Virus record (IMG/VR): IMGVR_UViG_3300015370_001134
Coordinates: 6,521-70,520 of that record
From: a virus
Taxonomy: Duplodnaviria; Caudoviricetes
DNA: 64,000 nucleotides
Direction: 5' to 3' (one strand)
Below are positions 28,113 through 52,617 of the stretch, piece after piece. The stretch's first letter is position 1. Each line of letters opens with the position of its first letter. Under the pieces are notes generated by a model, which saw only the letters and a program-made list of their open reading frames with translations, searched no databases and was not told where the DNA came from. Position numbers and translations under genes: made by a program.

Positions 28113-28955
28113 CTAACAATTATTTCTAAACAAAACACACCACTTGGCAACTGATGATAACTCTGATTCAGAACGAGACATTTTTCTTATATTCCGAGCA
28201 TGTTCTTTCATTTTTCCCATAGCTGCTGGATTGCCACCGTTTGAGCATCGTGATTTGCTTTTCAAAAACAAATCAATTTCCTGGCTAACCTTTTGCCAAA
28301 TTTTTTTCCGTTCTTCAGTTAACGCTTCATGTTCATTTAGCTTAAGTCTCTTTATAGATACTTCCACTCGTTGTTTATCCCATTCTGATATTTCATTATC
28401 AGGGACAATTATTGCATTGCCTTCCTCATTAAATGCAATCAGGGCTACATCATTTAGATCGGTTGGGTCCAATAAATAACATTCTTCAGATTCTTCACAC
28501 TGAAGATCGTAAGTAGAGCAATATGAAGTATCTTTAAGTGGAAACCATCCTCCCTTTTTTCTATTACCTACATTTCCACAAAGCCTAAAATTGCTATAAT
28601 CAAAGGCGAGCCACCAATAACCATCACGTTTAAAACCATTAATATCTATAGCCTCTTTTTTAGGACGAAAATGCTCCACATCATAATATGAATACAGTTC
28701 TCTTACTTCTGAAAACCAACATTTTCCCTTAGAGAGAGCCTGCAGCCAAGGCTTGAGTTTTCCCCAATGTGCACTTTTTGAATCAATAAAATCATTTCTT
28801 TCTTTTATATCACCCACTTCACTCAATTTTTCAAGTTCAGCAAGCAATTCAGCCGATTTTGCAAGCCATGCATTCCATTTTTCCTGAGACCAGGGTTTCC
28901 AGTTCGGAAGGTTATTATCAACCGGTGTTTTGCCTTCAAAATCAATATAAATCAC
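28113..28955 (-). CDS. HNH endonuclease, PtuB/retron-Ec78-HNH-like; C-terminus possibly clipped by the prophage
   Basis: GKCWFSE, DVEHFRPK, YWWLAFDYSNFRLCGNVGNRKK, YLLDP motifs; ATGA-coupled to the ATPase. Confidence 0.75.
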   Translation of the reverse strand: MIYIDFEGKTPVDNNLPNWKPWSQEKWNAWLAKSAELLAELEKLSEVGDIKERNDFIDSKSAHWGKLKPWLQALSKGKCWFSEVRELYSYYDVEHFRPKKEAIDINGFKRDGYWWLAFDYSNFRLCGNVGNRKKGGWFPLKDTSYCSTYDLQCEESEECYLLDPTDLNDVALIAFNEEGNAIIVPDNEISEWDKQRVEVSIKRLKLNEHEALTEERKKIWQKVSQEIDLFLKSKSRCSNGGNPAAMGKMKEHARNIRKMSRSESELSSVAKWCVLFRNNC

Positions 28956-30550
28956 TGATCTGTCTCCTTAAGAATTTCATCAATGATTCCATCGGCAATA
29001 GCATCCTGTTCTTCTTGCTCTTCAGGTGTAAGTTCTGGCTTGTGAAACTTTGTGTGGAGGGCCATCTTCTTTATGAATTTATCAAAATAAGGATCTTTAA
29101 AATCACTTGCAAAACCAAGGTCAGAGAGTTCATCACTTAGTCGAGTTAATTCTATATTATCAATTTCAGAACGGGCTTCACCCAAGGCATACAGATAATT
29201 TCGTCTATCAATGCGCCGCAATGTTTCCGTATCAACCGTTGATCGCAAACCGAACAGATCACTTTTAAGCAACCCAGAAACTCCCATACCTTGTGGATCT
29301 TCAATTGGCTCTTCAGCTCGAATTAACCCACCTTCTTTAATGAGAATACGTACTTGCTCCTTCCTCAAACTGCCAATCATCAAAGGATCGTGGGTGGTAA
29401 CCAGTATTTGTGATGAACTATCACCAATCACATTTTTTATTGCTTCAAAATATCGGAGCTTCCAGATTGGATTTAGGTGTGTGTCCGGCTCATCGAGTAA
29501 AAAAAGAGTTTCTTCCTCTTTGGTAAGACGCATAAGCCCAAGAACAGTTAACAACTGCTGCTCCCCTTCAGAGAGTTCACGAAATGAAATATCTCCTTGG
29601 GTATGCTTATGCTTGACCTTAATTCTTACCTCATCAATCAAATCCGATATATAGGTACTTTCCAAATACTTAAAAAAAGTTACTGGCGTTGGCTCAGGTG
29701 AATCCTTATCGTCAAAAGCATTGGCCAGACTATGGAGTTCCTTTTCATCCTGAAGAAAGAGGTAAAGAAGTTCAAATTTTTCTTTCCGATCACGAAAGTC
29801 AATCGTACGAGACTCTTCACTGTCAATTGGTGCAATTGCATAGTCCCAGAGTTTATCGAGGAAGTACCGCACTTTTCCACGAGCATACCAAAATCGGTTA
29901 TCTCCATTTTTAAGAATGGCTTCAGATGGATTGCTGCCAAACCAGTAGGGTCTTTTCAGCACGAAAAGAACCGATTCCAAATTAAGAATGCCCAGATCAG
30001 AAAGAATTTTTTTCACCTCTTCATCATTATCAATGAGATATGCCAGAAGAACAAACTGAGAGTGCACATTTCGACAGAGAAAGAGCCGACGTAATGGTAT
30101 GTCTTCATCACTCAGAAGATCATCATAGAATTTTTTTTGATGACGATGAAACAGCTCTTCTATTCGGTCATTTTTACCAGAATAGTATGCAAATACATTT
30201 TTAGGAAGAAAGCCATTCTCTTCTTTACTGATTGCTGTGGCTGAACTTTTCTTGCCATCTACTTTAACAAGTGGATTTTCGCTCTTTTCCGCTTCCACCT
30301 CAATTGTGTGACCACGCACCTCATATTCGAGTTTATAAGTGAACTCCGGCTTGTTTTTCAAATCCAAATCACGAAAAATCGTTATGATTGCTTCAAAGAG
30401 ATTTGATTTACCAGAACCGTTCTGACCAATAATTGCATGGCTGTTGAACTGCATAATATTACCAGCAGCATCGTTGCCTTCTGAGATAAAATCAATTTTG
30501 AAATCTTTGAGGTTCCGGAACTCTCCTATATGCAGTTTATTAATTCTCAT
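28952..30550 (-). CDS. ABC/AAA_21-type ATPase, PtuA-like
   Basis: Walker A GQNGSGKS, signature LSEGEQQ, Walker B LLDEPDTH, H-loop VTTHDP. Confidence 0.85.
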   Translation of the reverse strand: MRINKLHIGEFRNLKDFKIDFISEGNDAAGNIMQFNSHAIIGQNGSGKSNLFEAIITIFRDLDLKNKPEFTYKLEYEVRGHTIEVEAEKSENPLVKVDGKKSSATAISKEENGFLPKNVFAYYSGKNDRIEELFHRHQKKFYDDLLSDEDIPLRRLFLCRNVHSQFVLLAYLIDNDEEVKKILSDLGILNLESVLFVLKRPYWFGSNPSEAILKNGDNRFWYARGKVRYFLDKLWDYAIAPIDSEESRTIDFRDRKEKFELLYLFLQDEKELHSLANAFDDKDSPEPTPVTFFKYLESTYISDLIDEVRIKVKHKHTQGDISFRELSEGEQQLLTVLGLMRLTKEEETLFLLDEPDTHLNPIWKLRYFEAIKNVIGDSSSQILVTTHDPLMIGSLRKEQVRILIKEGGLIRAEEPIEDPQGMGVSGLLKSDLFGLRSTVDTETLRRIDRRNYLYALGEARSEIDNIELTRLSDELSDLGFASDFKDPYFDKFIKKMALHTKFHKPELTPEEQEEQDAIADGIIDEILKETDQ

Positions 30551-30561
30551 TATTCCTCGAT

Positions 30562-32496
30562 TTATGCCTCAACAATTCTGACTTCTGCCTTTTCTGGCTC
30601 TTCAATCCAGCTGTTAACCATTTCAATTTTAAGCTGATAATAAAATTCATCAATAGGCAAACCTGAATGGTTCCAAAGTGCTTTGGCCGAAAGTTCATCA
30701 TTATTTTGTGCCAAGATGGCGCTAAGGGGGGCATTGTCTTTAGTATCAGGCTTTTTCACCAGTTTGAGTTTGGTGATCAATTCGGTCTTTGGTGCTTTCA
30801 TTTTTTCTTGTTTCTCCATGGATATACCTGTGATACTCTCAACCATCGATTGAGCTAATAGTTTTGATATTTGTCGTGATTTCTTTATTTTTTTTTGCAA
30901 AATATCACAAATGGACAAGAGAGCCTGGATTTTTTCAACAATTTTTTTTTGTTCAATTAGCGGAGGAACTGGAACCATAAGACTCTCCGCATCACCAACT
31001 CTTAGATGTTTTACCATTGCACCAACGGCAACTTTCATCATTCTTTTAATAAAATTTGGGCTATAAATTGCGTAAATAAGGAAGTTCTTTTCAAATAAAT
31101 TGGGGAAAAGCCTTATTAGCATTGTGCGTTGTCCCAAACAGACAGTTGCTCCTTTAGGTACAATTGCAGCCTCTCCCATTGGCGCTTCTCTTGTAAAAAA
31201 AATATCCCCACTAATAGGAGGCATTCGCCTGGCCCAAAAATCATAGGTTTCTGTCGTAATTTTTTTTGTAAACTGTAAATTCATAAAGCCATTACGAATA
31301 TCCGATGTCCGTACCAGGTGAATACCAGAATCTACATATGGTGCTGTTTTATTATGGCAATCCACGACAGCTTTCGAAATTTGTAAAAATGATGCCCATA
31401 CCCAATGATCAGGTATTTTTACCTTAGGGTAATTTAGTTTCTGTTTTTTGAGCTTTTTCATCATTATTCGAGCTTCCTTAAGCTCTTGCCCTTCAGAATT
31501 AGCCTCCCATTCTTTTCTTGCGCTTTCAATTTGTCTTAATAAATCTTCCCCATTAAAGACTAATTTTTTATCTATAGGTATTAGATTTCCATTAAGGGCA
31601 ACGTCCTTAATAGCACTTTTCAACTCCTCCACATCCTCTGGGAGTTCAAGTAACCTCGGTATGTTTTCTTCCGCTCGTTTCCAGGCAGTAAACAGTTCAT
31701 TCCCTCCTTGAGCTTTAGCTAAAGCCTCCAGGGTTGAAGTACGAGCATTTTTTATGAGCACCGATCGTTTCTGTTGCTGCCCTTCAAGTTGATCACACAA
31801 AGCCATAAGTTGATCCACTTTGGCAACAATTCGTTTTTGCTCTTCAATTGGAGGCAACCCAACTTCCCCATTTAAAAGGGTTTTTGTATCAAGATGTGGA
31901 ATTGCAGCGCCCTTCATACTTGAATTAAGTTTTTGGAAACCTTGTTGAAATATCAATTTCACAAAAGGTTGAATAAATGGGGGCGTCTGAATGATTGCTA
32001 AAGTTGATCCTACTACACCAAATTTCCCCTGTAAAATTAGCCCGCTTCGAGAACCATCACAAACTACAAGAATATCTTCATCATGACATTTAAAGGCTTT
32101 TTCATCATTGGTAAATCTTCTTACGTTTCCTCTATCTAATGCTTCGATATCTTGATAAGGATACTTTTTTTTTGTTTCACTTAAATCTTTAGGATTTTTC
32201 CCTTTTAATAAACTGAAAAGGTCCATATTTTTTACTTGCACCCAATTCGGGGGCAAAGTCAAAAAAATTTTTGACTTTACACTAAGACTTCTGACTTTTT
32301 TTCCCCTTAGGCGCAATTGCTCCGAATTATACGCCTTCACTTCGTCAAGTAATTCCACTGCGGAACTATCCGTTGTCAATTGCTCTGTGAGTCTTCCTTT
32401 TAATCCGAGAAATAAAATCATCTCTCTCAGTCTTTGCACGCCACCAGGAGCATTAGCGATAACACTGAGCTCATCTAAAAATGTCTGAGGATTCAT
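30562..32496 (-). CDS. hsdS: Type I RM specificity subunit with an extra ~85-aa C-terminal domain
   Basis: Two TRDs with conserved LPPIEEQKRIVAKVDQL and VPPLIEQKKIVEKI spacers; 644 aa. Confidence 0.9.
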   Translation of the reverse strand: MNPQTFLDELSVIANAPGGVQRLREMILFLGLKGRLTEQLTTDSSAVELLDEVKAYNSEQLRLRGKKVRSLSVKSKIFLTLPPNWVQVKNMDLFSLLKGKNPKDLSETKKKYPYQDIEALDRGNVRRFTNDEKAFKCHDEDILVVCDGSRSGLILQGKFGVVGSTLAIIQTPPFIQPFVKLIFQQGFQKLNSSMKGAAIPHLDTKTLLNGEVGLPPIEEQKRIVAKVDQLMALCDQLEGQQQKRSVLIKNARTSTLEALAKAQGGNELFTAWKRAEENIPRLLELPEDVEELKSAIKDVALNGNLIPIDKKLVFNGEDLLRQIESARKEWEANSEGQELKEARIMMKKLKKQKLNYPKVKIPDHWVWASFLQISKAVVDCHNKTAPYVDSGIHLVRTSDIRNGFMNLQFTKKITTETYDFWARRMPPISGDIFFTREAPMGEAAIVPKGATVCLGQRTMLIRLFPNLFEKNFLIYAIYSPNFIKRMMKVAVGAMVKHLRVGDAESLMVPVPPLIEQKKIVEKIQALLSICDILQKKIKKSRQISKLLAQSMVESITGISMEKQEKMKAPKTELITKLKLVKKPDTKDNAPLSAILAQNNDELSAKALWNHSGLPIDEFYYQLKIEMVNSWIEEPEKAEVRIVEA

Positions 32497-34271
32497 TATG
32501 CTTCCTCACTGAAATGGTGTGCAAAGGCGGCAGCCAACTCATGCTTCAATTGTTCTTCAGTCGCAACAATCTGCTCTGTAACCTTTTTTAATTTTAACAA
32601 CAACTCGTCCGGATCGTGAATTTCTGATTCAGGTGTATTAGGATTCTTTTCATCAAGATTATAAATTGGCCAGAAAATTCGATCGCCGGAAGCTTGCTCG
32701 TCCTTGGCTTTTAACCGAAGTTTCTCAGCCTTATTTTTAAGAATTTCAATCTCTTCATCCACCTGCTCCCGCTCCGTTTTCCCATTTGTTCCTTTTATGG
32801 ATTTTCGAAGTTCTTTTAGATTACTTTCCAGATCCGAAGCTTCATTATTCAGTGTTTCAGCTTTATCCCAAAAGGGTTTTGCTTTTGCTTCAGCCACAAG
32901 CTTACGAGACTTAAAATCAATTTTCCAGGCGAATTCACTCTCTTCACGGTCTGCAAAACCGTTTGACTCTTTGCCCCACCATTCTTTCTCTCTCTGAAAT
33001 TCTTCAAGTTTTAGCGGTTTTGTTTTCGAATAGCTTTTATATCCCGACGGATAGGGATGCTCATAATACCAAATTGTTTCGGTGGGTTTTCCTTTGGTAA
33101 AAAAAAGTAAATTTGTCTTAATGCCGGTATAAGGATTAAACACACCATTGGGAAGACGAATAATTGTATGAAGACTACACTCATCCAGCAAAAGCTGTTT
33201 TACCTTTGCTTTGACTCCTTCACCAAAAAGATTTCCATCTGGTAATACAATTGCCCCTCGCCCACCGTCTTTCAACAATTTTTTGACAATAAGTGTTAAA
33301 AACATATCTGATGTTTCCCTTGTGCGGACATCTGCGGGGAAATCAGTCCCTACTCCATCCTCTTCCATTCCACCAAAAGGAGGATTCGTAATCACACAAT
33401 CTACCTGATCATTTTTCGACCAATCATTCCAGCCTTTTGATAGAGTGTTGCGGTGTTCAATCTGTGATGGCACGTCAATGCCATGAAGCATCATATTGGT
33501 GGTACAGAGCAGGTGTGGCAGTTGTTTTTTTTCAATACCGTGAATACAGACTTCAACCGCCTTTTTATCATCCGCTCCAGACTTTTTATTTATCTGGGAA
33601 TTGAAGTGATCGATTACGGCTGTTAAGAATCCTCCGGTGCCACAAGCTGGATCAAGAACGGTTTCCCGTTTATCTAAACGAGGGTTGACCATTTGTGTCA
33701 TGAACTGAGTCACTGCTCGGGGTGTATAAAATTCTCCCGCATTACCCGCACTCCTTAGATCATTTAAAATCTGTTCATACATATTCCCCAAGTTCTGACG
33801 ATTTTTAAAATCATGGAAATCAATCGCTTCATCAAGTTTTTCAATCACCTCAAGCATTAATGTGCCGGATTTCATATAATTATTCGAATCCACAAAAACC
33901 TCACGCACTACTTTTGCTTTTGCTATCTCAATGTTTTCGGAAGCCCCTTCAATATTCAACTCCTTAAGGCCAGGGAATACTTTATTATTCACATAGTCAA
34001 TCAACTCACTTGCTTGTATTTGCGGTGCAAGTTTGCCGTCTTTGCTTGGCAGATACTTTGCCCACTTGCGCCAACGACACTCTTCTGGAATGGGTGATTT
34101 GTATTTTTTTTTCTTGTCCGCAGCATCATCTTCCCACTCTTCTTCTTTTTGATCAAAAACTTTAAGAAAAAGCATCCAGGTTAACTGTCCTATCCGCTGG
34201 GCATCTCCGTCCACTCCATCATCTTTTCGCATGATGTCTTGAATACTTTTTATAGTGCTGCTTAAACTCAT
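32496..34271 (-). CDS. hsdM: Type I RM N6-adenine methyltransferase with C-terminal coiled-coil insertion
   Basis: GEFYTPR, LDPACGTGGFL (motif I), ITNPPF (motif IV). Confidence 0.93.
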   Translation of the reverse strand: MSLSSTIKSIQDIMRKDDGVDGDAQRIGQLTWMLFLKVFDQKEEEWEDDAADKKKKYKSPIPEECRWRKWAKYLPSKDGKLAPQIQASELIDYVNNKVFPGLKELNIEGASENIEIAKAKVVREVFVDSNNYMKSGTLMLEVIEKLDEAIDFHDFKNRQNLGNMYEQILNDLRSAGNAGEFYTPRAVTQFMTQMVNPRLDKRETVLDPACGTGGFLTAVIDHFNSQINKKSGADDKKAVEVCIHGIEKKQLPHLLCTTNMMLHGIDVPSQIEHRNTLSKGWNDWSKNDQVDCVITNPPFGGMEEDGVGTDFPADVRTRETSDMFLTLIVKKLLKDGGRGAIVLPDGNLFGEGVKAKVKQLLLDECSLHTIIRLPNGVFNPYTGIKTNLLFFTKGKPTETIWYYEHPYPSGYKSYSKTKPLKLEEFQREKEWWGKESNGFADREESEFAWKIDFKSRKLVAEAKAKPFWDKAETLNNEASDLESNLKELRKSIKGTNGKTEREQVDEEIEILKNKAEKLRLKAKDEQASGDRIFWPIYNLDEKNPNTPESEIHDPDELLLKLKKVTEQIVATEEQLKHELAAAFAHHFSEEA

Positions 34272-34304
34272 TTTAATCTTTCTTCTTTAAATTATCATTA
34301 TATA

Positions 34305-36725
34305 TTATGCACTTAAACCTTCATAAAGTGCTTGTTCTAGTTCTGTAATTGCTTCGGAATATTTTTCAAGCCCACCGAATATTTCACGTCTAATCTGAGT
34401 TTTACTTCCAATTCGATTAAATGGCGGAAGTTCTAAGATTTTTGGATCTTCTATATCTACTATTCCATGAGCTGCATATTTTTCTAATAACGCTTCCAGC
34501 ACTTGCCTTGCTTGATCACTGTATTTTCCAAAATAATTTCGTTTTTTTACATTATTTACACGCTCTTTTCTGGAAAGTGGTTTTTGATCAAAGGCTATAT
34601 GAGTAATCAGATCAAAAATACCAAATTGTTCTGAATTTGGGATGGCCTGCCTTAACACTTTGAGATCAACCCCTTGTTCTTTTAATTCATCGATAATTGC
34701 CTTTTTCCGATCAGTTGCACTCCAATGATTTAAAAAATCCTTTAGTGTTCCGAACTGATGGTGTAATGATTTCCTGATTTCTTCCTTCAAAAAAACTTGA
34801 TACTCCTCAGTAATCAATTTCCCATCAGTATCAAGATACTGCTCTCGCCATACCCCCTGATTAACCTCGACATCGTCAACTACATAACGACCAGGCCTTT
34901 CAGAAATTCCACCTTCATCTCCACCATCATCAACGTCAGACCACTCAGGATATTCAGGATGGCCACCACCTTCATCTTCAAACTCAGACTGAGTTAATTC
35001 CTCTTCAGGTGGCACAATGGGTTCATCTGGTTTTGGCTCGTAAATGACAACAGGTTCACCATCAAAGTCTGGATCTGCAAAAAGCCGGGTGGCATTTTTA
35101 AAATCCATCACAGTAAAATAAAGTTTGTGATAATCTTCACGAATACGTGTACCCCGCCCTATAATCTGCTTGAACTCGGTCATGGAATTTATGCTCTGAT
35201 CAAGGACAATAAGCTTGCATGTTTTTGCATCGACACCAGTACTTAAAAGTTTTGAGGTTGTTGCAATAACAGGAAATGATTCGTCATTATCTATAAAATA
35301 AGAAAGTTGAGCTTTGCCTTCTGAGTCATCTCCGGTGATCCGCATCACGTAACGTCTATTATTCGCTGCTGCTGGTATCAGTTTAACTAATGCCTGACGC
35401 ATTCTTTCTGCATGGTCCTGATCGTCACAAAATACAATTGTCTTTGACATGGGATCTGTTTTTTCAAGATATTCCCAAACCTTTGAAGCAACAAATTCGG
35501 TACGTTTGGTTAAAATCATATTTCGATCATAGTCTTTCGTGTTGTATTGACGATGTTCAATGACTTTCCCGTTTTTATCAATTTTTCCTAATTCAGGGGT
35601 ATAACCAAGAGCATCTACATCTGATACAACACGAATGACCTTATAAGGTGCTAAAAAGCCATCCTCGATGCCTTGTTTTAGAGAATAAGTATAAATCGGA
35701 TCACCAAAATAATGAGTATTTGAAGTATCTCTTGTTTCTTTAGGCGTAGCGGTCAAACCCAAATGAGTGGCACTATTAAAGTATTCCAGTACAACACGCC
35801 AAGCTGAATCCTCAGAAGCACTGCCTCGATGACACTCATCTATGACAACCAAATCAAAAAAATCTGATGGAAACTGCCTAAAAATCTGTTTCCATTCTTC
35901 ATTCCCTGTAACTGCTTGATAAAGAGAAAGATATATCTCGTAATTTTTTTTAACCTCTCGATTTGATATTTTATGCATTATCTCACCAAAAGGTGAAAAA
36001 TCTTGCAGCATCGTTTGATCAACAAGAATATTTCGGTCGGCAAGAAACAAAATCCGCTTTTTTGCCTTGGCTTTCCACAACCGCCAAATAATTTGAAAAG
36101 CCGTGTATGTCTTCCCTGTTCCTGTAGCCATAACTAGCAAGAGCCTATTCTGCCCTTTGGCAATGGCTTCGATTGCTCTATTTATAGCAACTCTTTGATA
36201 ATATCGGGCAGCCTTTCCTGATCCATCTACATGGTAAGGCTGCTCAACTAAATGCACACTATTTTCATTATCAAGGCCCTTCCAAGTTCTGTATAAAGGC
36301 CAAAGTTCAGAAAATTTGGGAAATTCCTCAAGCCCTAACTCTCTTTCAATTGGTTCAGTCAAACCCGTCCGATCATGAAACAAAAACCCATCTCCATTGG
36401 AGCTGAAAGCAAAAGGAACATCCAGCATTTCAGCATATAAAAGCGCCTGCGGCATGCCATGACCGACAGAATAAATATTGCGTTTTGCTTCCACAACTGC
36501 GACTGGGACATTAGGACGGGCGTAAATTACATAGTCTGCTCTTTTGGGTCCGCCTTTTGCTTCAGGATTCTTAACTCGGGATGCTAATTTGCCCCGAACC
36601 ATTATCCGACCATCAGTAAGCTTAACTTCTTCTCGAAACTGAGACTGATCCCAACCAGCCTGTTCAATAGAAGGCGTAATATATTTTGTACAAATATCAC
36701 GCTCACTGAGCTCTCTTTTTTTCAT
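34305..36725 (-). CDS. hsdR: Type I RM restriction subunit (EcoAI/EcoEI-like)
   Basis: ADY...VVEAK nuclease motif, MATGTGKT, IDECHRGS, LTATP, QIIGRGTR; start refined to MKKRELSERD (RBS GGAGAGG). Confidence 0.93.
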   Translation of the reverse strand: MKKRELSERDICTKYITPSIEQAGWDQSQFREEVKLTDGRIMVRGKLASRVKNPEAKGGPKRADYVIYARPNVPVAVVEAKRNIYSVGHGMPQALLYAEMLDVPFAFSSNGDGFLFHDRTGLTEPIERELGLEEFPKFSELWPLYRTWKGLDNENSVHLVEQPYHVDGSGKAARYYQRVAINRAIEAIAKGQNRLLLVMATGTGKTYTAFQIIWRLWKAKAKKRILFLADRNILVDQTMLQDFSPFGEIMHKISNREVKKNYEIYLSLYQAVTGNEEWKQIFRQFPSDFFDLVVIDECHRGSASEDSAWRVVLEYFNSATHLGLTATPKETRDTSNTHYFGDPIYTYSLKQGIEDGFLAPYKVIRVVSDVDALGYTPELGKIDKNGKVIEHRQYNTKDYDRNMILTKRTEFVASKVWEYLEKTDPMSKTIVFCDDQDHAERMRQALVKLIPAAANNRRYVMRITGDDSEGKAQLSYFIDNDESFPVIATTSKLLSTGVDAKTCKLIVLDQSINSMTEFKQIIGRGTRIREDYHKLYFTVMDFKNATRLFADPDFDGEPVVIYEPKPDEPIVPPEEELTQSEFEDEGGGHPEYPEWSDVDDGGDEGGISERPGRYVVDDVEVNQGVWREQYLDTDGKLITEEYQVFLKEEIRKSLHHQFGTLKDFLNHWSATDRKKAIIDELKEQGVDLKVLRQAIPNSEQFGIFDLITHIAFDQKPLSRKERVNNVKKRNYFGKYSDQARQVLEALLEKYAAHGIVDIEDPKILELPPFNRIGSKTQIRREIFGGLEKYSEAITELEQALYEGLSA

Positions 36726-36820
36726 TTCCTCTCCAAAAATGTTGGATACCCGATTCAAAAAACAATCCATAATCACAAGGTTTAAAAGAATTTTATTCGC
36801 TTTCCATATCTCACCTTTTT

Positions 36821-39800
36821 CTACCCTGCCGGAGGTGTTTTTATAGCCTTACCATTTTTTACCTTCCGATGAAACACATCTAAATCCAAATCTGCAACAT
36901 TTATAGAAATTTGATCCACACCATGTGCGTGTGAAATAAGGCGTTCAAAAGATTCTTTATACGGAGCCTGCATAGTAGAGCCACCGTACTGACCTTTGTT
37001 GACCACAACGATGTGCTGGTACATATGATAATGGAGCGCACCAACCATGGCATCAAAAGTTCTGACATCCTTATTATGTGCTGGTATAACGAACAAATGA
37101 GACTTATTTTTCAAATCTGAAGCAAGTTTGAGATCTGTTGAGTCATAGCAAATGGCCCCTGTAATTTTCAAGGGATCTTTTGAAATCCCTTCCACCTCTA
37201 TTATGTGCTGGCAAGGGCGGAAAGAACTCACTCCCAACTCTTTTTCAACTAATGTTGGATGTGCCTTGCCTTGATCCCGGATCACCCATTGCCGACCTGA
37301 TTCTCGATAATCTGGTATTAACCATCGTGCTTTATTTACCAATTTCCCATCAGAATCTATGAAAATCATCCCGGCAAAAATCATTGAGCGTGTTTTATCG
37401 GCTAATCTTTTTAGTATATCTTGATCATCTGAATGTATCGCTACTTCTGGAAAAACTATCAAATCTGCAAAAGCTGGCCTTTTTTCTTTTTCAGTACCAG
37501 CTTTGCAAATCAATGTTTTATAAGTGAGACTACATATTTTTGCCAAATGATCCCGATTTCTCTCTTTAACCGGTGATGAACTTAAAGTAGGATCAGAGTC
37601 TGAAAAATCTTTGGTTTTTGGAAGCAGTTGTTGAACTGTAACCAATCTAAAGTGTGCATTATTTGATTTATTCGGTCTTTTTATTTTAGTTATGACAACC
37701 GGCATTTTGGATGCTTCACAATGAAAATCATTTAACAATGAAATTTGGTTTTCAATTACAATCCTACAACTTTCTAAATCATAAATAGTCTTTAATGAGT
37801 CCTCTCGAATGTGGGTGGATTCAAAACCTGGCCATTGAAGACAAATCATTAGAAATTCTGAAGCCCAGGTTGATAAAGTTGCATAATCACCAACAAGAGC
37901 CTCCGGTGCATGCATCATTCCCATTCGCCTCTTATACCAATTCGTCCGGAGCCCTTTGTAACCATTTATTTTACCACTTTTCCATCTATTGCCGGTATAA
38001 TCGTCTTTTCCTATGACAACCGCTCTTAATATTGAGCCAATCCAGTAGATAACATCTGCACCTGGTGTATCAGACAACCATGGCGGTGTGCTGAACCGTG
38101 GATCTTTCAAAATTTTGGCTGTATCTTTACTAACTTCAATTTGACAGCCGGGAACCCAGATTTCTTTCCAATCAGTAGCTAAACCTTTTCCCCCTGGTTT
38201 TGGTCTTACAAACAACTGTGATGGAGATAAGCCCAAGACATTTTGCTTTTCCTCATAAAGCGTCAATAATTCCAAAGATAATTTTAAAAACGCAGCCTCA
38301 TGAACAAACCCATTTGATTCCGAAAATATAAGTTGACTCAATCTTTGTTTTGCAAATCGAGAGACAGTTGAAGGTTTATAGGGGCGTGCCCATTCAAATT
38401 TCTTCGATATTTCGATAAAATCATCTGATTTATTGATTTGACTCCAAAAGAATCCCCAGAGATCGCCGCCTCTTTTAGCTAACTCATCGATAATTTTTGA
38501 AAGTTCTGTTTCATCAAACTCTTCTATAATTCCAAATAATTGCCGTGCAATAATTGAAGGAGTTCCACTAATTTGACCTGCAATTTCAAAGAGAGCCAAT
38601 TTTTGGCTTTTCCATTCTATTGGCTTACCCGCTAATATTTTATGCAACGTGTGCTGAATCGTTTCTTCAGAATCATCCAATGGAACAGACTTTTCCAATA
38701 CGGCAAGCAGGAGCAGTGCTTGTCTTTGAACAAAAATTGGTAGTTTGCTCGATGATATGGCCTTTTGGGCATAATGTCCTGCAATACCTAACATTCCTGA
38801 TGGATCGGCACTATCAGGATACTGAATTCTTTCATAATAGCTTTTGAATTCGATGCAGAAACGAAAAATATCGGCCAAGACATAATCAGATAAACAGCTA
38901 TTTATCTGATCAATATCTTTGCGATTTTTTCCGCTAAAACTACATCTTTCATATAGAGATTTTAAAACTGGCTCTAAGAGTTGAGGTGTGGGATATATTT
39001 CAAAAGCTTTTCTTAAAACTAAAGACAAAGAGGGATCTTGTATCCAAGACCAGATTAATTTTTTAGCAAGCAATTCACTCTCATTATCAATAGATCCCAT
39101 GGATTTTTCATTATTCGGATCTTCTCTTTCCCCAAGACGTCTTTTATTTCTCATTAGAATTTCAAGTCTATTCGCAGCGAATCTTTTCAATGTATCTGGT
39201 CTAACATCATGATCGAATTTGGCCACTCTTAAAAGAGGTGCGTCGGAAAGAGAGTCCAAATCAGAAGGCAATCCATCTGTTTGAGTTGTTAATAGACCTT
39301 CTAATATGCTTATTGCTCCGTCTAAAGTATCCCTGTCAACCGGTCCACTAATTTCCTTTTGCAGTTGATTAATTCTACCTGACAGGCTACCGCTACTATC
39401 CAAATCAACCAGTGATATTATTTGAGTTTTATCATTGTTTAATGAAAGCTCTTGTCCCCCTCTTTTTTTTAATTCTTGATTGATCCAGTTATTAATATTT
39501 TTTGTTACTTGCTCTATTGAACTTGCTTCATTCGTACTGATCACTAATCTCAAATCATCCACATAGCGGCAATAGTCATGTAAAACAACTCCTTCAAGTT
39601 GAGGTAAATTGTTTCCAATTTTTGAACCAACGAACTCGTCAAAATTAATCAAATATGAATTTGCCAAAAAACCTGCTGCAACAAGCCCTTGTGGGAGTCC
39701 TTTTCCTAAATTAATGCCTATTCTTTTGGCTTTGACTTTGGCTGTTTTATTCCAGTTCCAATTTGTAATATTCTGAATTGACTGCCAAAATTGCTCACAA

Positions 39801-40543
39801 TCTGTAGCAACATCAAGGTTATCACAGATTTCTTTCAACCTTTCCACCATTATGGATCGATCAATGCAGTTATAAAACTGGGCGATATCAAGACTAATTA
39901 TATATATATGATCTTTAGTCTCATGGCTCTCTGCTGCGTAATTGCCGAAAAAGACTGGACGTTTCAAAAAATATCTGTAATCAGTAAAGAACTTCCTATA
40001 CGTTTGATAGTTCCCCCAACGGAACCATGCCTCATCATCTTCCCAATCGCAAACCAATCTATTTCCATAGCTGTACACGCCCTTGTCTTGGGCCTTTAAA
40101 AAATCTTGCTCACCACAATTCCCCTGAACTGTTTCGACTGAATCTGCAAGACATAACATTGCAGCCGTTGTCAAAGTCTGGTCTCTAATTGTCAAATGTG
40201 CTAGTGGTCGGATTGGTGGTTTGTCTTTTTTAATACTATTTTTATCTTTTTGCTCTCGAATCCAACCTTCCTTTTGATCAACTATCCATCTTTGGCTTTT
40301 GGGAGCCGGGACCAACTCCATTTTATAAGGAATAAAATCAGATTGAGATACCATTTTACCCCAATTAGAAGCATTTGACTCCAACCCAAGAGCTGAAATA
40401 TCTAAGGCCAATGTATCAGCATACCAGTTGTGCGATCTCATATATGCATGAGTTTTTTTCCACGCCTGAGCAATGACAACTTCATCAGTCAAATATTCTA
40501 TTCTGGGTCTTAAGTTTCGATACTTAGGATCAATTAAGCGCAT
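36821..40543 (-). CDS. Reverse transcriptase fused to a C-terminal nitrilase domain (DRT type 1 / UG1-like)
   Basis: RT motifs LPQGLVAAGFLAN and YCRYVDDLRL; nitrilase triad FPEV (E), QGKAHP (K), AICYD (C); 1240 aa. Confidence 0.85.
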   Translation of the reverse strand: MRLIDPKYRNLRPRIEYLTDEVVIAQAWKKTHAYMRSHNWYADTLALDISALGLESNASNWGKMVSQSDFIPYKMELVPAPKSQRWIVDQKEGWIREQKDKNSIKKDKPPIRPLAHLTIRDQTLTTAAMLCLADSVETVQGNCGEQDFLKAQDKGVYSYGNRLVCDWEDDEAWFRWGNYQTYRKFFTDYRYFLKRPVFFGNYAAESHETKDHIYIISLDIAQFYNCIDRSIMVERLKEICDNLDVATDCEQFWQSIQNITNWNWNKTAKVKAKRIGINLGKGLPQGLVAAGFLANSYLINFDEFVGSKIGNNLPQLEGVVLHDYCRYVDDLRLVISTNEASSIEQVTKNINNWINQELKKRGGQELSLNNDKTQIISLVDLDSSGSLSGRINQLQKEISGPVDRDTLDGAISILEGLLTTQTDGLPSDLDSLSDAPLLRVAKFDHDVRPDTLKRFAANRLEILMRNKRRLGEREDPNNEKSMGSIDNESELLAKKLIWSWIQDPSLSLVLRKAFEIYPTPQLLEPVLKSLYERCSFSGKNRKDIDQINSCLSDYVLADIFRFCIEFKSYYERIQYPDSADPSGMLGIAGHYAQKAISSSKLPIFVQRQALLLLAVLEKSVPLDDSEETIQHTLHKILAGKPIEWKSQKLALFEIAGQISGTPSIIARQLFGIIEEFDETELSKIIDELAKRGGDLWGFFWSQINKSDDFIEISKKFEWARPYKPSTVSRFAKQRLSQLIFSESNGFVHEAAFLKLSLELLTLYEEKQNVLGLSPSQLFVRPKPGGKGLATDWKEIWVPGCQIEVSKDTAKILKDPRFSTPPWLSDTPGADVIYWIGSILRAVVIGKDDYTGNRWKSGKINGYKGLRTNWYKRRMGMMHAPEALVGDYATLSTWASEFLMICLQWPGFESTHIREDSLKTIYDLESCRIVIENQISLLNDFHCEASKMPVVITKIKRPNKSNNAHFRLVTVQQLLPKTKDFSDSDPTLSSSPVKERNRDHLAKICSLTYKTLICKAGTEKEKRPAFADLIVFPEVAIHSDDQDILKRLADKTRSMIFAGMIFIDSDGKLVNKARWLIPDYRESGRQWVIRDQGKAHPTLVEKELGVSSFRPCQHIIEVEGISKDPLKITGAICYDSTDLKLASDLKNKSHLFVIPAHNKDVRTFDAMVGALHYHMYQHIVVVNKGQYGGSTMQAPYKESFERLISHAHGVDQISINVADLDLDVFHRKVKNGKAIKTPPAG

Positions 40544-40576
40544 TTTTTAACCTTAATAATTTCAGCAATGATTTTA

Positions 40577-41449
40577 TTATCCACTCTCAACACTCTTAAG
40601 AGTCCTACCGTCCTGGGTTTTCCATTCTTTCAATCCATTCGCATTTCTACCCATTATTACAGCAGCAGCCAAAGATGGACTGGAAAACAAATAATCCTCA
40701 ACAAAAAGGTATTGATCATCCTTTTTTTCAATTATCTCTTCTTTTATAAGTCTACTTCGAAGATTTTTTAACGACGGTGAAAATGACTTGACATAATCAT
40801 CCGCAATTCTAGAATTTTGCAGCACTAAAAAGCCATCATTGTTTTGCTGCCCTATTGCATCCGCACCCCTTGCGGCTTTTATAAATAGCAAATTGTCATC
40901 ATTCTTCTTATTTACAATATTTCTTAACGATTCAAAAATTTTATAACCCAAAATAGAAACCATCATCTTTGCATTCTCGATAAATTCTTCCATTTCTGCT
41001 ATGTCTGGCTCAGAGATAGAAGATAGAGTTGGAACTGAATTGTTTAGAATTGAAAATCTGTTCGCATCAATTGCAATATTGTACATTTTATGTTCAACAT
41101 ACTTTATATGCGCCTTATTCAGGTTATCGTCCTTACTAATAAGGACAATGGCTTCATGCCAAAAGTCCTTTTCCCTTAGATGTTGGGCCAACCTTTTGAA
41201 AATATTCTCTGCCTCACCGAGATAGGCAACGCCTTTTTTTGAATTATCTTCTGTTTTTCCAAACAGAATGTATACTCCTGTGCCATTGAGTTCAGGCCTA
41301 TCAGAACAATCTTTTACCAAGCTCCTTGGAATTTTATATGCCTTCCCAGACCAGTTAGATAATTCACAAGCCATTCTCCCGTCTGAAGTACCATCCATTA
41401 AAAATATTCTTATTGTTTTTCCGAATTTTTTGTCATTCATGTTTAACAC
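40577..41449 (-). CDS. GIY-YIG nuclease-like protein with C-terminal DUF4357 domain
   Basis: GVYILFG...AYLGEAENIFKRLAQH; C-terminal DYLFSSPSLAAAVIMGRNANGLKEWK. Confidence 0.82.
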   Translation of the reverse strand: MLNMNDKKFGKTIRIFLMDGTSDGRMACELSNWSGKAYKIPRSLVKDCSDRPELNGTGVYILFGKTEDNSKKGVAYLGEAENIFKRLAQHLREKDFWHEAIVLISKDDNLNKAHIKYVEHKMYNIAIDANRFSILNNSVPTLSSISEPDIAEMEEFIENAKMMVSILGYKIFESLRNIVNKKNDDNLLFIKAARGADAIGQQNNDGFLVLQNSRIADDYVKSFSPSLKNLRSRLIKEEIIEKKDDQYLFVEDYLFSSPSLAAAVIMGRNANGLKEWKTQDGRTLKSVESG

Positions 41450-41481
41450 ATCCTTTGAGTGAGGAATTGGCTCTCATGAAT

Positions 41482-41497
41482 ATCAACGACAGTGCCA
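41482..41497 (-). promoter_or_regulatory. sigma54 (-24/-12) promoter for the defence operon
   Basis: TGGCAC-TGTCG-TTGAT vs consensus TGGCAC-N5-TTGCW (C->A at -12), in the 51-bp gap after the activator gene. Confidence 0.6.
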
Positions 41498-41500
41498 AAA

Positions 41501-43045
41501 CTATTTTAAACCGTGCTTGATCAGCCAATTGGTTAATGTCTGGTAACTTGGCAAACCCAATAACTCAGAGGTCTTTTTCTTATTTCCATGTGTTTTTTCA
41601 AGACCTCTTTCAAGATAGTGAACTGTCACTTTTTTTAATATTTCTGGAAGATTGATTCCGTTATCCAAGGATTGATTAAGAATCATATCATTTCCCTTGA
41701 TATTACCAGGTATCGGAAACAATGCTTCTCTAATATCTTTTTCACTCACCTTATCATCTATTGACCAAACAGCAGCCCTCACCAAAGTATTTTGCAATTC
41801 TCTGACATTTCCGGGCCAGGGGTGTTGAAGCAGAAGATTTTTTGCCGATGCAGAAATTTTCTTATGTATATAACCTGGTTCATTCTTGCTTTCCGAATTA
41901 ATCTGCTCCAAGAACCTATCAATCAGCAGGCTTATATCTCCAGATCTCTCCCTTAATGGGGGCAAATTAATCACTCCTACAGCCAAACGATAAAAAAGAT
42001 CTTCCCTGAATAAACCCTTTGCCACTTCATCAATAAGTTTTCTATTGGTAGCCGCAATAATTCTTACGTCTATTTTTATTGCCTGAGTTGAGCCAATCCG
42101 TTTTACTTCACCTTCCTGGACTGTTCGCAATAACTTAACTTGCATCTCCAAAGGCAATTCACCTATTTCATCTAAAAAAATAGTACCCAGATGGGCAGCT
42201 TCAAAGTGGCCTATCCGCTTTGAAACTGCCCCGGAAAAAGCACCTTTTTCATGTCCAAACAATTCGGACTCAACCAACTCTTTGGGAATTGCCCCGCAAT
42301 TAATGGAGATAAAAGACTTTTCTCGGCGAGGGCTGGCATCATGGATGGCATGGGCAAATAATTCTTTACCGGTACCCGATTCCCCTTCGATTAACACAGG
42401 TATTGATCGGGGTGCAATCCGCCTTGCTTTAAGCACCACATGCTGCATTTCCTCACTGCGGTAAATTATGTCTTTAAACTCTGGTGCTTCTTTCGGTAGA
42501 CCAGCAGCAAGCTTTTCAAGGGTTCTATCCGATTTTTGAAGTAAATCGGGTAAAAAATCTGCGGAAATATCAAACGGGATTGAGGTTGTTTGAACTCCAT
42601 ATTCTTTTGAGGATTGAATAATTTCAGCAGGGAATCGAGTTTTCGACAATATTATCCATACAGCAGCCATATGAGAAGTGCCAGGACTTATATGAAAAGT
42701 AAGATTTGCATCTTTTCCATGCCTCTTCAAAATGTCTTCTACAGACCTGACAGCCGATTGATATATTTCAGAAAATACCGTTGGACCAGACATTATTTCA
42801 GGGTACACCTTGATGGGGATATCGGTTTTGCCTTTTATCCAACCTACATAAGACTTGGTCTCTTTGGGTTTCAAGTCACTGACCAAACAAACTTCATCAT
42901 ATTTTCTGGAAGTTACAGCCCGGGCGATCGGTCCTAAGCCAACATCCATCTTACCATTAGAGGCATCTAAATCCTTGAATCCAATCCAGCATGTTAATAT
43001 ATTCTTCATAAACATCTTCATATAAATTAATTTATGGAAACACAA
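41501..43045 (-). CDS. sigma54-dependent enhancer-binding protein with N-terminal CARF/RtcR-like domain
   Basis: GESGTGKE, GAFSGA loop, FLDEIG, FREDLFYRL, WPGNVRELQN, C-terminal Fis HTH; N-terminal LTFHISPGTSHMAAVW; the true start may be 43009. Confidence 0.85.
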   Translation of the reverse strand: MCFHKLIYMKMFMKNILTCWIGFKDLDASNGKMDVGLGPIARAVTSRKYDEVCLVSDLKPKETKSYVGWIKGKTDIPIKVYPEIMSGPTVFSEIYQSAVRSVEDILKRHGKDANLTFHISPGTSHMAAVWIILSKTRFPAEIIQSSKEYGVQTTSIPFDISADFLPDLLQKSDRTLEKLAAGLPKEAPEFKDIIYRSEEMQHVVLKARRIAPRSIPVLIEGESGTGKELFAHAIHDASPRREKSFISINCGAIPKELVESELFGHEKGAFSGAVSKRIGHFEAAHLGTIFLDEIGELPLEMQVKLLRTVQEGEVKRIGSTQAIKIDVRIIAATNRKLIDEVAKGLFREDLFYRLAVGVINLPPLRERSGDISLLIDRFLEQINSESKNEPGYIHKKISASAKNLLLQHPWPGNVRELQNTLVRAAVWSIDDKVSEKDIREALFPIPGNIKGNDMILNQSLDNGINLPEILKKVTVHYLERGLEKTHGNKKKTSELLGLPSYQTLTNWLIKHGLK

Positions 43046-43175
43046 GAAAATTTATTGTGGTTTTTCATTTCTTTTCAGATAGTTACTTAATCCAAACAGA
43101 AACAAACCTTTTTAATTCAACAATTTCAGCATATTAGAACAGTTAACTTTGCCTTTCCATTGTATCATTTCAGTT

Positions 43176-43191
43176 TGGCACCATTTGTGCT
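43176..43191 (+). promoter_or_regulatory. sigma54 (-24/-12) promoter divergent from the activator
   Basis: TGGCACCATTTGTGCT: exact GG-N10-GC spacing, upstream of a small GIY-YIG ORF. Confidence 0.55.
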
Positions 43192-43244
43192 CAATAGGCT
43201 GTCGTAAGTCAAGGAAACAAACCCATAAAAGAAAGGAAAGTGAA

Positions 43245-43589
43245 ATGACAACGAATCCTCCGACAAGCGAACCCGCAGCTAAATCGTCACATCAAACAGA
43301 AAGGGATCACAACATGTCTACAAAAAAAATAAAATTAACTATAACGGAAATTGAAAATCTTAAAAACGATAAGCCGGTAGTTTACACAATCAAATCAGCA
43401 TCTGGTTTAAGCACATATGTGGGGATTGCCCAAACTGGCATGTTGAAGGCTCGGATTGCAGAACATTTTCAGGATAACTCAAATAATTTTTCAGGCGCTA
43501 CCGTTGAAATTGTGCATGCTGATAGCATGGAAGAAGCAAAACGGAAAGAATCCGAAATTTTAAAAAATAGTTGCTCTTATGCAGACTGA
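43245..43589 (+). CDS. Small GIY-YIG-like protein
   Basis: VVYTI...TYVGIA...KARIAEH...E motif; alternative start at 43314. Confidence 0.6.
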   Translation: MTTNPPTSEPAAKSSHQTERDHNMSTKKIKLTITEIENLKNDKPVVYTIKSASGLSTYVGIAQTGMLKARIAEHFQDNSNNFSGATVEIVHADSMEEAKRKESEILKNSCSYAD

Positions 43590-45558: not shown

Positions 45559-46047
45559 ATGCGTGAAAAAACAGAATTCTGGAACGATTTAAAATCAGGT
45601 AAGTTTGCGTCAATGGTCAAGGAATCTGCCAAGGGACATAAGCTTGCCACGCCTGAAGAAGTTTACAATACCATAAAACCATTGTTTGCCGACCAGGATG
45701 ATGTGGAAACCTTTTACTGTATCTTCCTGAACGCCAAAAATAAAATCCTGGCAATAGAAAAGATGTTTTCTGGGACCATATCCACTTCCAGTGTATATCC
45801 CAGAGAAATAATCAAAAAGGTCCTTACCCATAAAAGTACGGCTGTGGTACTTGCACACAATCATCCTTCAGGCGATCCCGAGCCATCCAGTTCAGATTAT
45901 GCCATTACAATCAGGATTGGAATTGCCCTGGAAAGTATTGGTGTTACTGTTCATGATCATCTCGTTGTTGCAGATGGCTATTACAGCATGGCCAGCTCTG
46001 GAAAATTAAAAACAATACAGGACAAAATTTCAGAAATCACTCTCTGA
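45559..46047 (+). CDS. radC: RadC-like JAB domain protein (short, mobile-element type)
   Basis: VYPREIIK, LAHNHPSGDPEPSSSD, VHDHLVV. Confidence 0.9.
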   Translation: MREKTEFWNDLKSGKFASMVKESAKGHKLATPEEVYNTIKPLFADQDDVETFYCIFLNAKNKILAIEKMFSGTISTSSVYPREIIKKVLTHKSTAVVLAHNHPSGDPEPSSSDYAITIRIGIALESIGVTVHDHLVVADGYYSMASSGKLKTIQDKISEITL

Positions 46048-47299: not shown

Positions 47300-48529
47300 A
47301 TGGGAAAAAGACGGCTGTGTCGAAAAATTCATTTTACCAAAAAAAACATTGAAAAACTGGGACCTCAAAAACCAGATGCACCCTCAAAAGAAATTGAATG
47401 GTCAGATGACCTTGCAATTGGGCTTAAATGCCTCTGCAACAAGGCCGATCCGCCCAGAAAGACTTTTATGTTCCGAGGTGTATTCCGTAAACGGAAAATT
47501 GCCATTGCCTTGGGAACTTTTCCAAGCTTATCCGTAGAAGAAGCACGTGAGATGGTCTATGAGAATCGAAAGATGATCTCGAAAGGTATCGATCCACTGG
47601 CAAATATCGAAAAGCAAAAAGCTGAACTGACCTTTGCAGAGTTCTCAGAGCTATATCTCGCTCATGCAAAAGTTGTAAACAAATCATACTACAGCATCAA
47701 AACACGGCTGGAAAATCATATTATCCCGGTATTCGGGAAATATATGCTCAGCTCAATTACAAAAAGAGATCTCCAAAAATTTCTGGACAATATTTTAGCC
47801 AGAAAAGTTAAAGGAGGAACTAAAAAAATTAAAGGAGGCACTGTTAATCGTTTCCGATCTTTGCTGTTGAGAATGTTTAATCTGGCAGTTGAGTGGGAGT
47901 ACCTTTCTGAATCACCAGTTGCTGGCAAATCATTAGCTCGGCAAAAAGAAAGCCCTGGCCGGGATGTTTTTTTATCATTGGATGAATCCAGAAGGTTTCT
48001 TGCTGCATTAGATTCTTTGCCGAACAGGGTAAGTGCTTGTGCTCTTAAAATAATGATTCTGACCGGAAAGCGCCATGGGGAAATCCTTTCACTAAAATGG
48101 TCTGATATCTCGATTGAGGAAGGTATAATTTATATCCGACGGGAAATGACAAAATCACAGACCTCAGACAAAGTTTTCTTATCCCAAATGGCAAAGGATG
48201 TATTCACAGAACTTGAAGAGCACAGAATTGTCGGTAACCCACATGTGTTTCCAGGCAGAAAACATGGTAAACATATGGTAACCTGCCGGAGAGCATTCCT
48301 TAATGCCTTAGAAATTGCAGGCATCACCAAGAAAAAGGTTACGATCCACACCCTTCGTCATACCTTTGCCAGCCAGCTCTTGGCTAATGGGGCCAGCCTT
48401 TTTGAGGTGAGCAAGATGCTGAACCACTCTGACATGAAAATCACACAACGGTATTCACATTTATCTGACAAGGTCTTTCTTGAAAGAACCGAAAAATTTA
48501 GCGAAAGGCTTGCTCAGCCAGCAGGTTAA
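47300..48529 (+). CDS. Tyrosine recombinase/integrase with arm-binding domain (P4-type)
   Basis: ALGTFPSLSVEEAR arm domain; TGKRHGEI (R), HTLRHTFAS (HxxR), LNHSD (H), TQRYSH (Y). Confidence 0.92.
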   Translation: MGKRRLCRKIHFTKKNIEKLGPQKPDAPSKEIEWSDDLAIGLKCLCNKADPPRKTFMFRGVFRKRKIAIALGTFPSLSVEEAREMVYENRKMISKGIDPLANIEKQKAELTFAEFSELYLAHAKVVNKSYYSIKTRLENHIIPVFGKYMLSSITKRDLQKFLDNILARKVKGGTKKIKGGTVNRFRSLLLRMFNLAVEWEYLSESPVAGKSLARQKESPGRDVFLSLDESRRFLAALDSLPNRVSACALKIMILTGKRHGEILSLKWSDISIEEGIIYIRREMTKSQTSDKVFLSQMAKDVFTELEEHRIVGNPHVFPGRKHGKHMVTCRRAFLNALEIAGITKKKVTIHTLRHTFASQLLANGASLFEVSKMLNHSDMKITQRYSHLSDKVFLERTEKFSERLAQPAG

Positions 48530-52186: not shown

Positions 52187-52617
52187 TTTTCAGTCCCCAT
52201 TTTAAAAATCCCCGAATTCCCTTCCAATTTAATTTTCAGGATGTATTGGTAATCAATCAATTCAATGGTGAAGGGGAAGAAGGGTATAAAAAAGCACAAC
52301 AAAAAAATATGTAGTAGAGGTAAAAGACTTTTTATTTTTTGTACTGTTTTCAATTTTACCCCCTTTATTCCCTATTCCCCTTTTTTCCATACGTAAAAGT
52401 GAATCTAACCTGTTAAATTTGAGCTAACCAAACACTTCCTACTTTTCCGTTTTATTCCCCTTGTCACCCTTCCCCCTTGAAATTTGTGAATCCCTTCTCT
52501 CATTTGGAGTTATGCGAATAACACTGGTGTTGGGGGTTGAGGGTGATATTTTGAAAAGATTTATCTGTTGAACTGAGGGTCTATCGAAGACCCCCAGTAT
52601 TTTAAGCAAACTAAAGA

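Follow-up and report, generated by a model that had tools for sequence, protein, structure and literature searches.

What does a ligand-sensing transcriptional activator control when its gene stands at the head of a train of defense genes, and through which DNA elements would it act? We addressed this question in a 64,000-nucleotide stretch of a virus record (Duplodnaviria; Caudoviricetes; IMG/VR record IMGVR_UViG_3300015370_001134, positions 6,521 to 70,520), referred to below as the window. On its minus strand, between positions 28113 and 43045, the gene for a sigma-54 activator of the CARF-AAA+-helix-turn-helix (HTH) type is followed by seven closely spaced genes of restriction and other defense systems. 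We propose, with a probability of roughly 0.8, that the locus is a restriction-modification (R-M)-associated, RtcR-like switch, consisting of the activator, tandem binding sites, and a sigma-54 promoter at the activator stop codon, that heads this defense train. The parts of such a switch are present: the genes are intact, promoter and sites keep their positions across the family, and the genome contains rpoN.

The activator and its gene train

The activator gene (minus strand, 41501–43015, probable ATG at 43015) encodes a 504-aa protein of the RtcR_PspF2 type, as judged from Pfam and PADLOC matches, fold, and motifs. Its open reading frame (ORF) is open from a TTG at 43045 (41501–43045), and the 504-aa form agrees with the homologue P0001. 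The protein matches Sigma54_activat (PF00158, 4.9e-70) and AAA_lid_14 in Pfam, and PADLOC profile PDLC01995 (RtcR_PspF2--CARF_AAA_HTH) aligns to residues 15–513 over profile positions 2–480 of 481 (9.4e-194, 643 bits). Motif positions on the minus strand are Walker A (GESGTGK) at 42385–42365, Walker B (IFLDE) at 42181–42167, and the GAFTGA-type loop, here GAFSGA, at 42244–42227; the HTH lies at roughly 41620–41549. With NF038308, the NCBIfam equivalog for RtcR, the protein reaches 323.9 bits (cut-off 650), in an alignment that begins only at residue 85. By these sequence criteria, the activator is a relative of RtcR and not RtcR itself. RtcB (PF01139) was found neither in the 98.4%-complete genome nor in the window. 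The rpoN gene of the genome is an open frame of 481 aa with one Sigma54_AID match (62.8 bits).

A first-pass annotation of this DNA, made from the sequence alone, had described the N-terminus as CARF-like and proposed structure prediction as a check. A sequence search of the PDB with this region was uninformative, returning spurious DARPin/ankyrin matches only and no RtcR structure, so a fold search was needed. We built an alignment of the first 180 residues over 13 loci and modeled the fold with AlphaFold. The resulting model (pLDDT 82, pTM 0.79) has a Rossmann-like β-α-β core ending in a β5–β6 hairpin, and its top PDB matches in Foldseek are all CARF proteins: Csm6 (6tug), VC1899 (1xmx), Can2 (8bao/7bdv), Csx1-Crn2, Card1, Cam1, and Csa3. 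The W-I/V-G-x-x-D and H-x-S-P-G-T motifs are also kept. As modeled, the N-terminus (roughly 43015–42490, minus strand) is a CARF domain, in agreement with the earlier description.

The annotation had further placed genes for a GIY-YIG-DUF4357 protein, a reverse transcriptase (RT)-nitrilase, hsdR, hsdM, hsdS, an ATPase, and an HNH protein behind the activator. This eight-gene layout agrees with the ORF list of the window in coordinates, spacing, and profile identities, and the seven downstream genes correspond to PDC-S14, DRT1a, HsdR, HsdM, HsdS, PtuA, and PtuB. All eight ORFs are intact and on the minus strand, neighbors are separated by −4 to 51 nt across 28113–43045, and every one of the eight proteins aligns to a family profile end to end.

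The first gene of the train (ORF 40577–41449, probable start ATG at 41440 with an AAAGGA ribosome-binding site ahead) encodes the candidate defense protein PDC-S14 (PADLOC, 1.8e-114), with a Pfam match to DUF4357 (1.5e-23) and a weak one to GIY-YIG. It is followed by the gene for the 1240-aa RT-nitrilase Drt1a of DRT type 1 (36821–40543), which matches RVT_1 in Pfam. PADLOC profile PDLC03745 covers residues 4–1240 of this protein, its full length, with E = 0; a YVDD motif occurs at residue 327, and the C-terminal residues 737–1240 match RTasNitrilase (1.9e-86). HsdR (34305–36776) belongs to the EcoAI/FtnUII family of type I restriction subunits, scoring 1103 bits with NF046051 (NCBIfam cut-off 550) and matching ResIII and EcoEI_R_C in Pfam. 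The methyltransferase HsdM (32496–34271) matches N6_Mtase (3e-68) and HsdM_N in Pfam and MTase_I in PADLOC (9.6e-280), and the specificity subunit HsdS (30562–32496) carries two target-recognition domains (two Methylase_S stretches in Pfam; PADLOC Specificity_I, 2.2e-133). All three subunits are full length and form a complete EcoAI-family type I R-M system. The last two ORFs, which overlap by 4 nt, encode a Septu pair. PtuA (28952–30550) is an ABC/SMC-type ATPase with a GQNGSGKS Walker A motif (PADLOC PtuA, 6.3e-192, full length; AAA_21/AAA_15 in Pfam), and its nuclease partner PtuB (28113–28955) matches PADLOC PtuB over its full length (2.5e-97), with NCBIfam PtuB/HNH matches under cut-off. 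PtuB ends the train; the genes beyond it lie on the plus strand and are convergent.

A probable sigma-54 promoter after the activator stop codon

A TGGCAC-N5-TTGA motif had been noted in the gap behind the activator, and it is present there: the promoter-like element TGGCAC-tgtcg-TTGA (TGGCACTGTCGTTGA) occupies 41497–41483 on the minus strand, 4 nt past the TAG stop codon of the activator. Transcription from it would be expected to start near 41472. Within the window alone, the motif has 2 matches against 1.2 expected, which is not beyond chance, and comparative evidence is therefore decisive.

Three independent loci read by eye carry the element right after the activator stop, as TGGCAT-N5-TTGCT in one and TGGCAC-N5-TTGCT in two. 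For counts, we used 79 usable loci from a set that included 9 further genome loci and 80 metagenome loci. The strict motif was defined as TGG[CT]A[CT]-N5-TTGC starting 0–5 nt after the activator stop, and random windows of the same loci served as the control. Conservation of the −24/−12 motif among homologues, which the first-pass annotation had suggested examining, is seen at this same place: 49 of the 79 loci have the strict motif compared to 0.02% of random windows, and 62 have GG-N10-GC compared to 7%. The strict motif often overlaps the stop codon itself, as in TGATGGCAC.

This pattern recurs in 19 of 25 activator clusters formed at 70% identity. So fixed a position, 0–5 nt past the stop and facing the cargo, argues against mere clustering in a defense island, in which the activator would have other targets (its own expression, say, or a function of a mobile element) and the genes on the same strand would be independent of it. 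A mosaic cargo that varies between loci would be in keeping with such clustering, as would the integrase and primase-like genes of the island and the fact that all four systems are also known as stand-alone ones (PADLOC). However, of the 74 loci that have a downstream gene on the same strand, 56 have hsdR in first place, and the intergenic gaps are short or overlapping. We regard independent clustering as very improbable, and the reading of the locus as a switch with its own promoter is preferred.

Scans of the surrounding sequence add little other regulatory signal. No terminator-like site was found between the activator and PDC-S14, so read-through would give basal expression of the train. 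Sigma-70 promoter and terminator scans of 27.5–44 kb stayed at or under the level expected from shuffled sequence and revealed no internal landmarks, and no further sigma-54 motif occurs before hsdR or in the other internal gaps. Upstream of the activator gene, a sigma-54-like motif is absent in every locus, which makes positive autoregulation through sigma-54 unlikely.

Palindromic sites and a candidate second target

A Gibbs motif search of the 110 nt upstream of activator start codons returned a 16-bp imperfect palindrome, CAYAARAWWTYTTGTR, with the ideal form TACAAGAATTCTTGTA (16.5 bits). A pair of these sites, 20 bp apart, stands at −47/−27 of the activator start in about 60 of 67 loci, and it is kept for activator genes of 39% to 69% GC. 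The window pair (43021–43056, minus strand) consists of AATAAATTTTCTTGTG at 43056–43041 and CATAAATTAATTTATA at 43036–43021, 47 and 27 nt before an ATG at 43009 and likewise 20 bp apart. Scanning with a position weight matrix (PWM) located further sites within the activator gene, also on the minus strand: a single site at +941 (42053–42068; +941/+944 in many homologues) and a tandem pair at +1143 and +1163 (41831–41866), again 20 bp apart and in the same codons in most loci.

The intragenic pair codes for K-K-I-S-x-x-A-K/R-N-L, and the codons used there differ sharply from those elsewhere in the same genes. Ser is TCT in 84% of cases at the pair and 14% elsewhere; the corresponding values are 91% and 19% for Ala GCA, 97% and 25% for Arg AGA/AGG, 96% and 20% for Leu CTT, and 98% and 36% for Ile ATT. 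Such codon bias indicates that selection acts on the DNA itself and not on the protein alone. The palindromes are most probably binding sites of the activator's own HTH. We propose that the intragenic pair is a putative enhancer, or upstream activating sequence, ~350 bp ahead of the sigma-54 promoter, and that the pair over the activator leader is a putative autoregulatory site or distal enhancer. Tandem palindromes two helical turns apart are also a feature of NtrC and PspF enhancers, and because one pair overlaps the activator's own leader, autoregulation of the NtrC/PspF kind is suggested. Unlike the NtrC and PspF enhancers, the putative enhancer pair of the window lies inside the activator coding sequence at this distance from the promoter, which itself overlaps or abuts the stop codon.

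The whole 4.43-Mb genome contains 5 tandem site pairs, 3 of them in the island of the window. Pairs with a correctly oriented sigma-54 motif 210–369 nt downstream number two genome-wide, both in the window. The second of these is intergenic (60021–60056) and consists of the plus-strand sequences AATAAATTTTTTTGTA and AATAATTTTTCTTATG, 20 bp apart (PWM scores 19.3 and 12.8). It lies 17 kb from the activator locus and ~190 bp upstream of a second promoter-like element on the minus strand, the canonical TGGCAT-gggga-TTGC at 59832–59846, behind which come an AAGGAG ribosome-binding site and an ATG at 59772.

The candidate second target genes occupy 56965–59772 on the minus strand and were delineated from ORFs and from profile and structure matches. 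They encode a 112-aa protein (59434–59772), an 84-aa ORF (58883–59137), a 178-aa protein (58325–58861), a 203-aa JAB/MPN-like protein (57698–58309; Atlas features 0.95, structure TM 0.75), and a 258-aa ThiF/E1-like protein (56965–57741; Pfam ThiF, 4.4e-29). The 112-, 178-, and 442-aa proteins of this unit had no match in PADLOC, PHROGs, Pfam, or NCBIfam, the 178-aa protein had no usable Atlas match, and relatives of the second-unit proteins were absent from the other ~90 loci. We considered a PRTRC cassette and rejected it, given a PRTRC_ThiF score of 35 bits (cut-off 145). From the arrangement of sites and promoter, the JAB/ThiF(E1) cluster is a probable second target of the activator, and it may be a ubiquitin-like conjugation defense module. 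Extra tandem pairs with a strict sigma-54 motif 164–361 nt downstream also occur in two other loci, L097 (~13.3 kb past the activator start) and L112 (+3187), the latter of which may have another activator-like gene (483 aa) in tandem with the first.

The second site pair also bears on the question of which protein reads the palindromes. They are AT-rich, and the upstream pair overlaps the 5' leader of the activator, where there is room for an RNA element; binding by another protein (for example a nucleoid protein of the host or an independent repressor) or a role at the RNA level would account for these features. Nevertheless, the sites accompany the activator from host to host, over a range of 39% to 69% GC in its gene, and within the genome they recur ahead of the second sigma-54 promoter but hardly anywhere else. 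The palindromic form argues for a dimer reading DNA, and pairing at 20 bp is as expected of dimers that seed a hexamer. A different binder is thus quite unlikely, and we retain the activator's own HTH as the most probable reader of the sites.

Several observations weigh against a working switch at this locus. The window element reads GG-N10-GA, with GA at −12 in place of the near-invariant GC, a variant found in 4 of the 79 loci; this C-to-A change could weaken or deregulate the window copy of the promoter. The activator loop is GAFSGA, as in 3 of 71 family members (56 have GAFTGA and 8 have GSFTGA), and the HTH_8 match for a C-terminal Fis-type HTH is weak (19.6 bits against a Pfam cut-off of 22), with the family profile aligning to the C-terminus. 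A further 13 of the 79 loci have no recognizable promoter past the activator stop. Finally, the ~350 bp between intragenic pair and promoter exceed the usual enhancer-to-promoter distance of 80–200 bp. The first-pass annotation had itself raised the TTGA and GAFSGA caveats, and both are real; judged against the family alignment, they are minor natural variants. The TTGA form is shared by the window with loci L140, L150, and L151. A noncanonical loop (GAFSGA or GSFTGA) occurs in three of these four loci, L150 and L151 being close kin. We looked at co-variation of the TTGA −12 element with a variant loop and treat it as a hint only, the independent cases being too few to claim it.

The −12 variant can also be taken to mean that the switch is real in the family but crippled here, with the train expressed mainly by read-through or from internal sigma-70 promoters and the activator working mainly on the element at 59846–59832. 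This would fit the GA at −12 where 62 of 79 loci have GC, the canonical TGGCAT-N5-TTGC of the second unit with its site pair at a textbook distance, and the missing terminator between the activator and PDC-S14. However, loci L140, L150, and L151 retain TTGA together with intact activators and long downstream ORFs, the activator and all seven cargo genes of the window are themselves intact, and sigma-70-like sites are not enriched. We consider a crippled promoter unlikely, although it keeps some weight, and favor a switch that acts on the train.

In the mechanism that we propose for this switch, the activator gene, the 16-bp tandem sites upstream of its start and within its coding sequence, and the promoter abutting its stop would form one portable unit. 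By analogy with RtcR, which is reported to become constitutive when its CARF domain is deleted, the CARF domain of the window protein would hold the AAA+ ring off until a ligand derived from infection or damage binds; RNA fragments and nucleotide derivatives are candidates. The activator would then assemble on the tandem sites, remodel the sigma-54 closed complex, and boost the whole train. Read-through from the activator's own promoter could supply the basal level of hsdMS that keeps host DNA methylated, while induction would lift restriction, DRT1a, and Septu jointly. The second site pair and canonical promoter suggest that the same activator also drives the JAB/ThiF(E1) cluster. Taken further, the activator would run a small regulon through its 16-bp tandem sites, comprising the DRT1a/R-M/Septu train and the JAB/ThiF(E1) cluster in a neighboring integrase-bearing element, with one enhancer inside the activator gene itself, where both the protein and the DNA sequence would be constrained. 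We advance this regulon tentatively, at slightly less than even odds. If it is true, a single CARF signal would co-induce mechanistically unrelated immune layers.

Known regulators, cargo, and genomic surroundings

Most characterized dedicated regulators of antiphage islands are repressors; BrxR and CapW, for example, are sigma-70 repressors with wHTH-WYL domains. Like them, the window protein would be a dedicated transcription factor that senses a ligand and whose gene opens a defense operon; unlike them, it is predicted to activate sigma-54 transcription at the expense of ATP, with CARF as the sensor. If the proposed mechanism is true, a ligand-gated activator that raises restriction, a defense RT, and Septu together would amount to inducible layered immunity. 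The identity of the CARF ligand would reveal the signal by which bacteria switch on DNA restriction, and the cis-elements, namely the stop-codon promoter and the 16-bp sites, are defined well enough for direct testing.

The first-pass annotation had presented the locus as an undescribed system, a claim that does not hold, since the wiring was predicted in two papers (PMC4012209 and PMC11090510) and PADLOC already has the RtcR_PspF2 profile. Excerpts of Makarova et al. 2014 (PMC4012209) describe RtcR-like proteins with CARF, NtrC-like AAA+, and HTH domains that are not Rtc-linked and often lie near R-M genes, and propose that infection-generated ligands trigger sigma-54 activation of downstream genes; in these excerpts, we found no description of promoter position, binding sites, or a second target unit. 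Bell et al. 2024 in eLife (PMC11090510) place RtcR homologues at the head of co-directional defense superoperons that include type I R-M and raise possible feedback from RNA fragments. We found no experimental test of CARF/sigma-54 control of defense genes in the literature. The window locus shares domain architecture, the link to type I R-M, and the predicted sigma-54 role with the R-M-associated RtcR-like regulators (PMC4012209, PADLOC RtcR_PspF2), and its cargo adds PDC-S14, DRT1a, and Septu. With the CoCoNuT superoperons (PMC11090510), it has in common an RtcR homologue at the 5' end of a tight co-directional defense train, whereas the window train lacks CoCoNuT, McrBC, and HEPN and has Septu as its terminal module. 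The predicted family and its wiring are thus known already, and the DRT1a, PDC-S14, and Septu cargo and the candidate second target are new here. Further features particular to this locus are the combination of −12 A with a GAFSGA loop and the probable second sigma-54 unit before the JAB/E1 cluster. Its value is modest: it exemplifies the family cleanly, with a cargo that is unusual and perhaps a second target, and adds no new principle.

The RNA-repair regulon RtcR-rtcBA is reportedly the subject of work by Genschik in 1998. RtcR-rtcBA of E. coli and Salmonella (Hughes 2020, PMC7790460; Kotta-Loizou 2022, PMC9650030) resembles the window system in its CARF-AAA+-HTH activator, sigma-54-dependent target promoter, and use of CARF as regulatory input. 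The target operon of the window, in contrast, is co-directional with the activator and starts at its stop codon, and the cargo serves defense instead of RNA repair.

HNH nucleases leave 3'-OH ends, whereas the signal reported for RtcR is a 2',3'-cyclic phosphate end, and feedback of tRNA fragments onto the activator is possible but unsupported. The annotation had raised such feedback on the basis that PtuAB of retron Ec78 is reported to target tRNA. Such a report exists, as Retron-Eco7 PtuAB is reported to degrade tRNA-Tyr (PMC12673091), but PtuAB of the window scores far under the cut-offs of the retron-type equivalogs (NF041760, 35 bits against 500; NF041761, 51 against 150; NCBIfam). The Retron-Eco7 (Ec78) type was ruled out by these scores. 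The sole RT of the train is Drt1a and not a retron RT (PADLOC).

Close homologues of the activator (65–82% identity) are numerous, chiefly in Desulfobacterota-type assemblies, and one metagenome scan with an alignment-based query returned at least 552 matching stretches. A metagenome scan with the single activator N-terminal domain gave no matches, and neither did a search of the E. coli genome with the activator region. Genome contigs searched with the full-length activator gave mostly generic bacterial enhancer-binding proteins, locus L002 being the sole full-length relative. Within the phylum, the family is sporadic, occurring in 10 of 401 genomes and in none of the same family or order, a spread that fits a mobile module.

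The downstream cargo of the relatives always consists of restriction or defense genes. In the commonest arrangement, hsdR-hsdM-hsdS precedes the genes for an ABC-type ATPase (~550 aa) and its ~305-aa partner; other cargo includes Hhe, PDC-S20, PDC-S63, an OLD/GajA-like protein, a methyltransferase fusion, and ThsB-TIR. PDC-S14 and Drt1a sit between promoter and hsdR in the window only, and neither was found in the other 78 loci examined. Likewise, the window is the only locus among those examined in which the ATPase pair is Septu PtuAB.

The low-GC stretch around the locus (33–44%, mostly ~38%) runs from near 24 kb to the end of the window, with a left flank of ~50%, and is probably a composite island of at least 40 kb. 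The sequencing runs listed as containing this DNA are all groundwater metagenome DNA runs, with no RNA run among them. Between the two sigma-54 units lie mobile-element genes: a weak GIY-YIG ORF (43149–43589), DUF1232, a RadC-like JAB protein (45559–46047), a tyrosine integrase (47300–48529), and a cold-shock-domain/DUF3825 protein (48912–50843). Primase- and polymerase-like genes follow at 51137–54372, and no tRNA genes were found in the window. Divergent from the second sigma-54 unit, a GmrSD_N (DUF262) gene on the plus strand (60258–62054) has weak PADLOC matches to HEC-05, PDC-M55C, and NsnA and may be type IV restriction-like.

Among the relatives, the pair of ATPase and ~305-aa partner is the commonest cargo other than R-M (L082, L083, L101, L103, L104, L116, L118, L153, and others) and appears to be unnamed. 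The best PADLOC matches of the ~550-aa ATPase are NsnB, PDC-M55A, and HEC-03B, and the partner is without a family match. In L103 (5973–11777) and L104 (7788–13565), the pair is followed by the ~1930-aa helicase Hhe (PADLOC, E = 0), with no type I R-M system; these two loci have the most distant relatives of the activator, at 37–38% identity in the CARF domain.

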